DNA from: Candidatus Iainarchaeum sp.
Lineage (GTDB): Archaea > Iainarchaeota > Iainarchaeia > Iainarchaeales > JAZDDZ01
Direction: 5' to 3'
DNA: 14,701 nt
NCBI GenBank assembly: GCA_043809245.1
Contig: JAZDDZ010000041.1
Location: forward strand, 1 to 14,701
Part shown: piece by piece, positions 8,719-10,560 of the stretch
Layout: each line of letters begins with the position of its first letter
Position numbering within the stretch: the stretch's first letter is position 1
Position numbers and translations under genes: made by a program
Notes under the pieces: generated by a model
Seen by the model: the letters and a program-made list of their open reading frames with translations, nothing else
What the model was told of the DNA's origin: nothing
The model's database searches: none

Positions 8719-8967
8719 CTATCGTTTCTTTTTTCTGAAAATCCTTTTATGCAGAACAGTGAGGTAAAGGTGGAGAACAAGCAGAACCACAAAGGGAATT
8801 GTCAGCACGTCATGCAGTGTAAATGAAAGCGCCTTGTTCAGCAATCCAAAGGTCAATGCTTCCACTTCGCGGTAATAACTTATCCCAAAACCAGATACAA
8901 CGATTACAACAGTCACAGCCATGAATGCCCAGTGAACCGCTTTTTTTGCCAGCAGAAACCTGTCCAT
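8719..8967 (-). CDS. Small 2-TM protein with three membrane His residues (cytochrome b half-domain-like / DUF4405-like)
   Basis: VHW, SG, LHD and LHL pattern. Starts 1 nt after the stop of the Mo-oxidoreductase gene. Confidence 0.65.
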   Translation of the reverse strand: MDRFLLAKKAVHWAFMAVTVVIVVSGFGISYYREVEALTFGLLNKALSFTLHDVLTIPFVVLLVLHLYLTVLHKRIFRKKKR

Positions 8968-8968
8968 T

Positions 8969-9649
8969 TTAACCGCCTATGAATGAGTTATCCAAGTCAC
9001 CTGTGTTTGAATAGCCCCTGCTCTCCCAGTAGCCCCTGTAATTCGTGTCATCTGAAAGCTCTATCGCTGTAATCCATTTAATCCACTTGTAGCCCCACTT
9101 GCTTTCCGCTACAAGCTGGAAGGGAAATCCCCTTTCAGGCGGAAGCTTCAAGCCATTCATTTTGTAAGCCATCAGGATGTCGTTGTCCATTACGTACTCA
9201 ATCGGGAAGGAGGTTGTGTAGCCGTCGTACGCGTGAAAAATAACTGTTTTAGCGTTCTCAGATGCCTTTGAATTATTTATTATGTCCCTTACTAAAACGC
9301 CTTCCCATAAAATTTTAACACTCCAGCCCTCGACGCAGTTAAGTGTCACGATTTTTTGATAGCTTTGGAAGCCGTTTACAACTTCACTGTAAGAATAACT
9401 TTTAGGCGTTTCAACAAGTCCTGTCACGCCAAGCTTGTACAGGCTTTCATCTACTTGCTGCGGCCCCTTAATTGAGTTTTCCCTGAAATCATTCACGGAT
9501 GAAAGGTCAATGCCATTGTAATCCTGCACTTCAATGGTCTTCAATGGAATTGAGGAGCCCTGTTCAATAAGGTCCTGCTGCTGAATGCACCCTATGAAAA
9601 GAACGAGCGCCAAAAAGCACACTGCAAAAATAATTCCCGCTTTTCTCAT
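8969..9649 (-). CDS. Molybdopterin-dependent oxidoreductase, sulfite-oxidase fold (MsrP/YedY/YuiH-like), with a lipoprotein signal
   Basis: L-x-V-x-GLVE, the Mo-ligand Cys motif CVEGWS, WEGV, GYTTS, AY-x-MNG-x-x-LP-x-x-x-GFP, GYKWIKW and GYWE-x-RGY. N-terminal LVLFIGC lipobox. Confidence 0.9.
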   Translation of the reverse strand: MRKAGIIFAVCFLALVLFIGCIQQQDLIEQGSSIPLKTIEVQDYNGIDLSSVNDFRENSIKGPQQVDESLYKLGVTGLVETPKSYSYSEVVNGFQSYQKIVTLNCVEGWSVKILWEGVLVRDIINNSKASENAKTVIFHAYDGYTTSFPIEYVMDNDILMAYKMNGLKLPPERGFPFQLVAESKWGYKWIKWITAIELSDDTNYRGYWESRGYSNTGDLDNSFIGG

Positions 9650-9665
9650 TTTTTTTCACATCCAT

Positions 9666-10136
9666 TCAGAAATGGCACGCTTTCCTTCCCGTTTTCAGAA
9701 AATACTTCTGATGGTATTCTTCCGCTTCAAAAAATTCTTTTGCAGGCGTTATCTCCGTGGCAATCGGGCTGCTGTACTTTCCGCTTTTCTCCATTTTTTC
9801 CTTTGATTTTAACGCTTCTTCTTTTTGCTTTTCATTGAGGTAAAAAATTGCGGAACGGTACTGTGCCCCTACATCAGGCCCCTGCCTGTTCATTGTAGTG
9901 GGGTTGTGGATGCCCCAGAACACATCCAGCAGTTTTTCAAATGAAATTTTTTGCGGGTCAAAGGTTACCTCAACCGATTCAGCGTGCCCTGTTTTTCCCG
10001 AACAAACCTGTTCGTATGAAGGCTTTGCTGTTGTTCCGCCGGTATAGCCGACGCGTGTTTCAGTCACTCCGTTCAAGGTCCTGAACGCTTCTTCCACTCC
10101 CCAAAAGCATCCCGCTGCAAAAATCGCTTTCTCCAT
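9666..10136 (-). CDS. msrA: Peptide-methionine (S)-S-oxide reductase MsrA
   Basis: [12 protein letters not shown]-x-GG, TGHAE, RQGPDVG-x-[12 protein letters not shown] and a C-terminal Cys. RBS GGAGTGA precedes ATG 10136. Confidence 0.97.
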
Positions 10137-10143
10137 TTTTTTT

Positions 10144-10560
10144 TCACTCCTTTTTTTCCTCAAATTCAAGTGCGCACGAATTAATGCAGAACCGTTTCCC
10201 TGTTTTAGTGGGGCCATCATCAAACACGTGCCCCAAATGGCTTCCGCACCTAGGACACTTCACTTCAATCCTTTTCATGCCGTGGCTTTCATCTTCCTTC
10301 AGCTCCACTTTTCCTTCACCCATTGGCGCGTCAAAGCTCGGCCAGCCTGTTCCTGACTCAAATTTTGCCTCTGATGGAAAAATTTCAAAACCGCATGCGC
10401 CGCACTTGTAAACGCCTTTTTTCTTGTTGTGCAATAACTTGCCGGTGAAAGGCATTTCCGTGCCCTTTTCACGCAAAACCCTGAACTTTTCCCCGTCCAA
10501 TTCTTTCTTCCATTCCTCTTGGGTTTTTTCAATTTTTTTCATTGGCTTTTTTTCTTCCAT
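10144..10560 (-). CDS. msrB: Peptide-methionine (R)-S-oxide reductase MsrB (Zn-binding type)
   Basis: GTE-x-PFTG, two CxxC motifs, [14 protein letters not shown]-x-DGP and RFCINS. Confidence 0.97.

Follow-up and report, generated by a model that had tools for sequence, protein, structure and literature searches.

Why should an archaeon encode, directly behind its genes for two methionine sulfoxide reductases, a protein of the sulfite-oxidase fold that seems destined for the cell surface and a membrane protein of just 82 amino acids (aa)? The question is raised by a window of 14,701 nucleotides (nt), that is, the whole stretch of DNA analyzed here, which is contig 41 (JAZDDZ010000041.1, assembly GCA_043809245.1) in the genome of Candidatus Iainarchaeum sp., a draft of 1.48 Mb in 55 contigs that is 91.8% complete. 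On the minus strand of the window, the list of open reading frames (ORFs) and a reading of the sequence give four consecutive ORFs, for MsrB, MsrA, a 226-aa PF00174 protein and the 82-aa membrane protein. A first-pass annotation had taken them for an operon that joins cytoplasmic repair to an outward-facing counterpart of the bacterial molybdenum (Mo) enzyme MsrP, served by a minimal electron-donor subunit. The surveys reported below establish that the gene for the PF00174 protein (the enzyme, or Mo-domain, gene) and the small gene form a widespread conserved module, and that the linkage of the enzyme gene to msrA and msrB is real, recurrent and mixed in gene order. As to function, there is about an even chance that the pair is a two-part extracytoplasmic oxidoreductase, in which electrons from the cytoplasm would reach a lipid-anchored enzyme whose likeliest substrate is methionine sulfoxide in surface proteins, or related S-oxides. 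The features of the cluster are as follows.

10144..10560, minus strand: msrB, peptide-methionine (R)-S-oxide reductase, 138 aa (ORF; SelR match at 7.8e-48; TIGR00357)
9666..10136, minus strand: msrA, peptide-methionine (S)-S-oxide reductase, 156 aa (conserved ATG at 10136; PMSR match at 8.1e-67)
8969..9649, minus strand: sulfite-oxidase-fold (PF00174) protein of 226 aa without dimerization domain, a predicted extracytoplasmic lipoprotein
9587..9649, minus strand: predicted signal peptide with lipobox (MRK, hydrophobic core, LFIGC; Cys21) and no twin arginine
9335..9337, minus strand: Cys105 codon, within CVEGWS; the residue is the presumed Mo ligand (invariant in the family alignments)
8719..8967, minus strand: 82-aa two-helix membrane protein, a candidate homodimeric dihaem cytochrome b
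8770..8814, minus strand: invariant H-x13-H of helix 2 (His52 codon 8814-8812, His66 codon 8772-8770)
10561..10610, minus strand: A/T-rich, TATA-like stretch before msrB, a candidate archaeal promoter on a reading of the sequence
10611..10640, minus strand: hairpin (12-pair stem, loop of 6) with a T-rich tail that ends the upstream 122-aa gene and sets the 5' boundary of the cluster

MsrB scores 177.4 bits against TIGR00357 (cut-off 113.05) and has the two CxxC pairs and the RFCINS motif, while MsrA scores 219.6 bits against TIGR00401 (cut-off 108.1), carries the GCFWG motif and is the sole PMSR match in its genome; the msrA ORF spans 10223-9666, with the conserved start at the ATG at 10136. 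Since neither protein has a hydrophobic segment, both are predicted to be cytoplasmic. The intergenic gaps, in the order msrB, msrA, Mo-domain gene and small gene, are 7, 16 and 1 nt, and the first-pass annotation is borne out both on this spacing and on the ribosome-binding-site-like sequences before the second and third genes, which read AGGAG, 10 nt 5' of the msrA ATG, and a weaker GGATGTG 5' of the Mo-domain gene. Apart from weak intragenic consensus matches, no terminator-like sites were found between the four genes, which are read, from their spacing, as a probable single transcription unit.

The 226-aa protein matches Oxidored_molyb (PF00174) at 1.6e-35 and no other domain. It belongs to a very large family, with more than 8000 matches (all 8000 scored candidates passed E<=1e-3) and at least 572 and at least 578 confirmed loci in two collections, spread over anaerobic archaea, Chloroflexota, DPANN archaea and bacteria of the candidate phyla radiation (CPR). 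The best 120 members are 209-237 aa long, with identities of 60-72%; some relatives are labelled 'DMSO/TMAO reductase YedYZ ... catalytic subunit' (JGI), and others appear as Chloroflexota or Altiarchaeota proteins (NCBI). Cys105 and the surrounding CVEGWS hairpin are invariant in the enzyme alignments. The best sequence matches among solved structures are SorA (2blf, 1.3e-12) and then YedY/MsrP (3.1e-10), and the same two proteins are found by Foldseek with an AlphaFold2 model of the enzyme (predicted local distance difference test, pLDDT, 76), the template-modelling scores being 0.57-0.60 to the query and, for YedY (1xdq/1xdy), 0.52 to the target; the pterin-binding PruR proteins are also among the fold matches, more weakly (E 4e-6). 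The active-site loop separates the two. In the family-profile alignment the YedY loop MRCVEAWSMVVPW pairs gap-free with LDCVEGWSVTILW, whereas SorA (5e-16 against the profile) can be aligned only if about 24 extra residues, which hold its Arg-bearing loop, are inserted behind the Cys.

The N-terminus of the enzyme (MRKAGIIF...LFIGC) is that of a Sec-type lipoprotein signal with a Lys/Arg n-region, and acidic residues follow it. For a survey of signals, 163 family members were collected and 10 with too short an N-terminus were dropped; a lipobox-like motif was present in 89 of the remaining 153, and a loose RR motif in just 17, mostly from one Dehalococcoidia subclade whose close relatives read SRG in place of RR. 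Two rare longer forms carry modules of an extracellular type, a fasciclin domain (P0124) and a linker rich in Pro, Ser and Thr (P0125), and none of the 11 proteins recovered in a search for longer or fused forms was fused to MsrA or MsrB. The claim that the enzyme faces outward and is lipid-anchored therefore holds up well as a prediction, with the Lys/Arg n-region, hydrophobic core and LFIGC of the window copy and the lipobox-like motif in much of the family behind it.

The other half of the module came to light through the neighbors of the enzyme, in a survey of 160 loci that comprise the best 80 genome and the best 80 metagenome loci of more than 1150 detected. In 97 of them (38/80 genome loci and 59/80 metagenome loci) the ORF immediately 3' of the Mo-domain gene is a homologue of the small gene, and this is the co-occurrence that the first-pass annotation had proposed to look for. 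Among the 38 genome loci, 15 show a 4-nt overlap of the pair, and 32 have a spacing within -20 to +13 nt. A word-based homologue search with the 82-aa protein returned only itself, its relatives being recovered through the enzyme neighborhoods and by a profile search of 1.84 billion representatives, which gave 237 relatives at E<=1e-3; lengths are 48-157 aa among the 150 listed, and the small protein is thus a stand-alone family and not a gene fragment. The window copy matches Ni_hydr_CYTB (PF01292) at 3.2e-09 (37.2 bits, cut-off 30.1) over profile positions 99-171 of 179, which are the last two helices, and DUF4405 (PF14358) at 9e-4 (20.1 bits, below the cut-off of 26.7); of 35 family members, 33 match the former and 20 the latter (E<=0.01). 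The invariant residues in these 35 sequences are G26, G28, G41, K45, H52 and H66, with the two histidines, present in 35/35, placed 14 residues apart on helix 2, while His12 of the window copy is not conserved. Such a spacing of paired histidines within a helix is classical for dihaem cytochromes b.

The AlphaFold2 model of the small protein is a helical hairpin (helices 3-30 and 45-81, pLDDT 89.7). Because both ends are net positive (+2 at the N end, +7 in the C tail), both are predicted to be cytoplasmic, which would turn the conserved loop outward and place His52 close to the outer side of the membrane and His66 close to the inner side. As a single chain has just two His ligands to offer, the simplest reading is a homodimer with two haems; when the Mo domain (residues 26-226) was modelled together with two small proteins and two haems, the complex reached a score of 0.01, where the mark is 0.32, and this was counted neither way. 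With the Ni_hydr_CYTB match, the invariant H-x13-H and the hairpin model, the small protein shows the hallmarks of a cytochrome b. Nature has also provided a fusion: P0125, a 408-aa metagenome protein, joins a multi-transmembrane domain with two H-x13-H helices, through its Pro/Ser/Thr-rich linker, to a Mo domain.

The partner is not always in the same place. Two close orthologues of the enzyme were found in a search of 40 other genomes (0.5-1.5 Mb) of the same order, and in both (G027 and G003) a DUF4405-type small gene precedes the enzyme gene, the G027 copy reaching 30.9 bits (cut-off 26.7). When these upstream partners were used as phmmer queries, no such upstream partner was seen in the 80 genome loci, and the upstream ORFs of the 42 genome loci without an adjacent partner held no common small membrane gene. 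As a separate matter, several Chloroflexota loci among the 160 (L026, L038, L061, L068, L075, L118 and L142) have a gene for a DOMON-domain protein upstream of the enzyme gene, and five of them (L026, L061, L068, L075 and L142) also have, likewise upstream, a second small His-bearing membrane protein of 82-86 aa with no Pfam match; the two may constitute a second extracytoplasmic redox module.

It had been reasoned from the start that the proposal would fall if the linkage to msrA and msrB were unique to this genome, and it is not. With a distance limit of 6 kb for the genome loci and flanks of 4 kb for the metagenome loci, many of which lie on short contigs, msrA and/or msrB was found near the enzyme gene in 7/80 genome loci and 2/80 metagenome loci (those two being near-identical), or 9/160 in all. 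The arrangements differ. In a Desulfobacteria locus (L018) msrB is directly followed by the enzyme gene; in an archaeon (L020) an msr gene is adjacent and convergent; in three loci of Methanocellales type (L028, L041 and L054) the order is enzyme, msrB, msrA; and in Peregrinibacteria (L013) and Methanomicrobiales (L036) the msr gene is 2 kb and 3 kb away, respectively. One of the two same-order relatives, G003, has the small gene, the enzyme gene and msrB adjacent to each other in that order. Of the 80 genome loci, the first 50 supplied the genomes for a chance baseline, with random placement and a limit of 6 kb. In these, msrB is present in 24/50 and msrA in 26/50, and 27 genomes hold 39 msr loci; the expectation is 0.28 linkages and 6 were observed (Poisson P=5e-7, or 2e-4 with only 4 independent events), an enrichment of about 20-fold. 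A tree was built from 83 enzymes, namely those of the 80 genome loci, of the window and of the two relatives, with the metagenome loci excluded; on it the msr-linked label, borne by 9 rows, requires 7 changes, and branches with good support impose 6 or more of these.

The same tree and genomes yielded two observations of a different kind. Members from different domains of life are mixed on the tree, which points to frequent horizontal transfer: the Peregrinibacteria enzyme (L013) is sister to one from Woesearchaeota (L005, support 95), the Desulfobacteria enzyme (L018) groups with those of anaerobic methanotrophic archaea of group ANME-1 (L004 and L009, support 99), and a Coriobacteriia copy groups with the same-order relatives of the window. 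In addition, eight carriers of Dehalococcoidia type (L006, L015, L019, L029, L030, L031, L040 and L050; genome handles G056, G064, G067, G075, G076, G077, G085 and G093) each have an msrA (PMSR) match with one in-frame TGA, a candidate selenocysteine-containing MsrA.

Over all 160 loci the overall theme of the neighboring genes is redox chemistry and oxidative stress. The commonest are Thioredox_DsbH (23) and Rieske (16), followed by a 108-aa protein without known family (12), CoA-binding (12), FMN_red (10), ferritin/rubrerythrin-like (10), EamA (9), MsrA (8), a Cu-ATPase (8) and DOMON (7). In four loci (L096, L100, L121 and L142) the FMN_red gene, which encodes a WrbA-like NAD(P)H-dependent FMN reductase, is co-oriented with the enzyme gene and lies directly upstream of it at a distance of 3-122 nt, and three FMN_red genes are encoded in the genome to which the window belongs. 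Such a protein is a candidate for the cytoplasmic electron donor, reminiscent of Fre feeding MsrQ.

In the two-part oxidoreductase envisaged for the pair, the catalytic subunit would be a Sec-exported, lipid-anchored protein of the sulfite-oxidase fold with an active-site loop of the MsrP type (CVEGWS). The 82-aa hairpin most likely dimerizes into a four-helix bundle, in which the pair of invariant His on each helix 2 would serve as ligands for two haems b. A cytoplasmic reductant, possibly FMN_red, would reduce the inner haem at His66, and the electrons would move on by way of the outer haem (His52) to the Mo-pterin center of the lipoprotein, which would be docked on the conserved outer loop. 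The lipoprotein could then act as the reductase for methionine sulfoxide, or for a similar S-oxide, in proteins of the surface. Methionine sulfoxide would be the likeliest substrate because the pair stands behind the cytoplasmic msrB and msrA in a probable single unit; MsrA and MsrB would do the same repair inside the cell, and the pair would extend methionine repair to the cell surface.

Extracytoplasmic repair of methionine sulfoxide has been characterized in the MsrPQ systems of Gram-negative bacteria, and the E. coli MsrP-MsrQ (YedY-YedZ) pair offers the closest parallel in design. Both have a sulfite-oxidase fold without dimerization domain and a CVE(A/G)WS loop around the Cys (MRCVEAWS in MsrP, LDCVEGWS here), and in both an extracytoplasmic enzyme (predicted here) is encoded alongside a membrane haem-b partner (a candidate here). 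A cytoplasmic flavin reductase is a possible shared donor, in view of FMN_red upstream in the four loci and of the Fre-MsrQ connection as cited in a 2018 review of archaeal Msr enzymes (PMC6211008). The differences are as clear. MsrP has a Tat (twin-arginine translocation) signal and the window enzyme a Sec-type lipobox, and the latter falls far below the MsrP cut-off; MsrQ is a six-transmembrane ferric-reductase domain, while the partner here has two transmembrane helices, 82 aa and the Ni_hydr_CYTB/DUF4405 type; and the order here is enzyme then cytochrome, behind msrBA. As judged from these comparisons, the pair is an analogue of MsrPQ and not a homologue, with the enzyme in a separate clade and the partner in a different fold family.

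Other known systems share parts of the design. SorA is the best match among solved structures, notably in the C-terminal half of the Mo domain; unlike SorA and SorAB, the window enzyme has no dimerization domain, no Arg-bearing insertion after the Cys and no cytochrome c subunit. The gamma subunit of formate dehydrogenase-N and other PF01292 dihaem cytochromes resemble the small protein in the Pfam match above cut-off and in the H-x13-H spacing, with the difference that the small protein is half of their four-helix domain, so that two copies are needed for four His. For DUF4405 and the small FezC, Huang et al. (2024, mSystems, PMC11334425) demonstrated haem b binding by experiment, and their model of FezC is a homodimer. 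As described there, these too are small or modular membrane proteins in which paired His are the most conserved residues; the tested DUF4405 protein has six transmembrane helices and comes from flavinylation (ApbE) clusters, whereas here there are two helices and a Mo-domain enzyme. PruR, finally, is likewise small, Sec-exported and of the sulfite-oxidase (SUOX) fold, and shows (PMC11194511) that such a protein can bind a pterin in the periplasm, but with the Cys replaced by Trp and the hairpin truncated; in the present family both are intact and invariant.

Several results weigh against methionine sulfoxide repair by a Mo- and haem-containing pair of this kind. The msr linkage is a minority context, confined to the 9/160 loci, and the DsbH-family and Rieske genes are commoner neighbors than msr; about half of the tested carriers have no msrA or msrB at all. 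The enzyme reaches 68.7 bits (E 5.3e-19) against the MsrP equivalog NF003767, short of the cut-off of 207, and its score against the SorA-type model NF052245 (67.7 bits, cut-off 600, also not reached, the Arg-bearing loop and dimerization domain being absent) is nearly equal. Its signal peptide lacks the twin arginine. The MsrQ ferric-reductase domain PF01794 has no match in its genome, and the partner is unrelated to MsrQ. Among the 42 genomes without an adjacent partner, just 3 have a strong partner match elsewhere, and the cytochrome is therefore not obligatory for the enzyme. Much of what the first-pass annotation proposed must be divided accordingly. Likeness to MsrP stands for the active-site loop and as an analogy of function, and gives way for membership in the MsrP equivalog and for a partner homologous to MsrQ. 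The idea that gene context would assign methionine sulfoxide reductase activity gains from linkage that recurs above chance and loses from the rarity of that context and the greater frequency of DsbH and Rieske neighbors. For the Mo- and haem-dependent system as a whole, the features of the module speak in favor, and the gene content of its own genome leaves a question of assembly.

That question concerns cofactors and export. The genome of the window probably belongs to a DPANN-type archaeon, in view of its size and that of the other genomes of its order, the class III signal peptide encoded in the window and the neighbors on the tree. It has no match to MoaC, MoeA_N or MoaE for synthesis of the molybdenum cofactor (Moco), none to the haem-synthesis marker ALAD and none to TatC, and it encodes no pterin enzymes of the DMSO-reductase or AOR type. 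Two groups of carriers were fixed before counting, one of the own genome and ten DPANN/CPR carriers with small genomes (the two same-order relatives, Woesearchaeota, Aenigmatarchaeota, Micrarchaeota, Nanoarchaeota and Peregrinibacteria) and one of five free-living carriers (ANME-1, Methanocellaceae, two Chloroflexota and Thermodesulfovibrionales). MoeA and MoaC were each found in 0/11 of the former and 5/5 of the latter, ALAD in 0/11 and 4/5, and TatC in 1/11 and 5/5. In draft genomes a single absence is weak evidence, yet the pattern of absence is uniform across the carriers, and it agrees with a published survey in which MoeA and the Mo/W uptake proteins are missing from DPANN (PMC11733289). 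The organism thus appears to be unable to make either cofactor, Moco or haem.

The enzyme copies of the DPANN and CPR carriers nevertheless keep every invariant residue and interleave on the tree with copies from Moco-competent hosts, which suggests that they probably use the same cofactor. If no synthesis, a Sec signal and no Tat are taken together, the cofactor would have to be acquired from outside and inserted after export. To our knowledge, there is no route or precedent for the loading of Moco into a Sec-exported protein, and this too counts against the proposal. It is tempting, and at present rather unlikely, to go further and suppose that DPANN/CPR symbionts without Moco, haem or Tat keep this one pterin-enzyme fold as a Sec-exported lipoprotein that is loaded outside the cytoplasm with a Mo (or other) pterin from the host or the environment, is wired by the smallest known transmembrane electron conduit, an 82-residue dihaem hairpin homodimer, and repairs exposed surface proteins. 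This would be extracytoplasmic maturation by cofactor piracy.

Of the competing explanations, the one that survives best retains the surface module and changes its substrate, so that the enzyme would be a general S- or N-oxide or oxidant reductase, or a sulfite detoxifier, and in either case would merely share an oxidative-stress regulon with msrBA. The nearly equal scores to SorA and MsrP fit it well, as do the half of tested carriers without msrA or msrB and the neighbors (DsbH-family, Rieske, FMN_red, ferritin/rubrerythrin-like and Cu-ATPase), which read as a general theme of redox stress. What it does not account for is an msr linkage that is about 20-fold over chance and has arisen repeatedly. 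The enzyme has a loop of the YedY type and not the Arg-bearing one found behind the Cys of SorA and sulfite oxidases, and a SorB-type cytochrome c partner was not seen. This explanation appears unlikely, if far from negligible.

A second explanation starts from the hosts that lack Moco and holds that their protein is not a molybdoenzyme but a surface binder of another pterin or ligand, as in a PruR-like sensor or scavenging receptor, with the small protein as its transducer or anchor. Such a role would be in keeping with a genome in which no Moco synthesis, other Mo/W-pterin folds, Tat or haem synthesis was found, with the Sec-type signal, and with the presence among the fold matches, at E 4e-6, of PruR, whose members are Sec-exported SUOX-fold pterin binders (PMC11194511). 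PruR, however, has by the same account Trp for the Mo-ligand Cys and a truncated hairpin, where here the Cys and the CVEGWS hairpin are invariant; the DPANN/CPR copies are 60-72% identical to, and interleaved with, those of Moco-competent hosts, which makes a change of cofactor unlikely; and the partner retains the dihaem H-x13-H signature. A binder of this sort is accordingly judged improbable. Least credible of all is that msrBA and the Mo-domain and small-protein pair are independent units juxtaposed by compaction in a 1.48-Mb genome, for although intergenic distances are short throughout small genomes and 151/160 related loci show no msr gene in the stretches examined, the close spacing of the four co-oriented genes (7, 16 and 1 nt), the lack of a convincing terminator among them, and the independent msr linkages of varied gene order in Methanocellales-type, Methanomicrobiales, Desulfobacteria and Peregrinibacteria loci, the further archaeon L020 and the same-order relative (P=5e-7), make mere adjacency very hard to believe.

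The remainder of the window holds genes that lie outside the cluster. Upstream is the gene for the 122-aa protein (10638-11006, minus strand), which looks secreted and has no family match. Divergent from it is a gene for an ArsR-type helix-turn-helix regulator (11041-11355, plus strand), followed by one for a 94-aa membrane protein without family match (11359-11643, plus strand). Next comes a 438-aa protein (11650-12966, minus strand) with an archaeal class III (pilin-like) signal peptide and PKD domains, which is consistent with an archaeal surface adhesin. On the other side, an EamA-family transporter gene (7823-8689, plus strand) is convergent with the 82-aa gene across a 29-nt spacer. EamA was considered as a conserved partner and rejected: in 9/160 loci, of Thermoplasmatota type, the pair has a co-oriented EamA gene right behind it, and the window EamA is not specifically similar to those (E 1.9). 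Beyond it, a 305-aa protein (6803-7720, minus strand) matches only EF-Tu domain 2, with a weak SelB/EF-1alpha match (55 bits, cut-off 242) and no match to the GTPase domain.

In the 2018 review of archaeal Msr enzymes (PMC6211008), MsrP is described as uncommon in archaea, and the SUOX-family proteins found there as having no known role in methionine repair. A literature search found no description of the pairing of such an enzyme with a two-helix partner, although an older SUOX-fold phylogeny, which the search did not cover, might delineate the clade. Against this background, the repeated msr linkage of a very large family means that its function can be assigned in a directly testable way. 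Its two-helix H-x13-H partner would represent, in minimal form, a natural wire for electrons across the membrane. The presence of the family in 11 genomes without detectable Moco or haem machinery or, in 10 of them, Tat raises the further question of how cofactor-dependent surface enzymes are matured in reduced symbionts.

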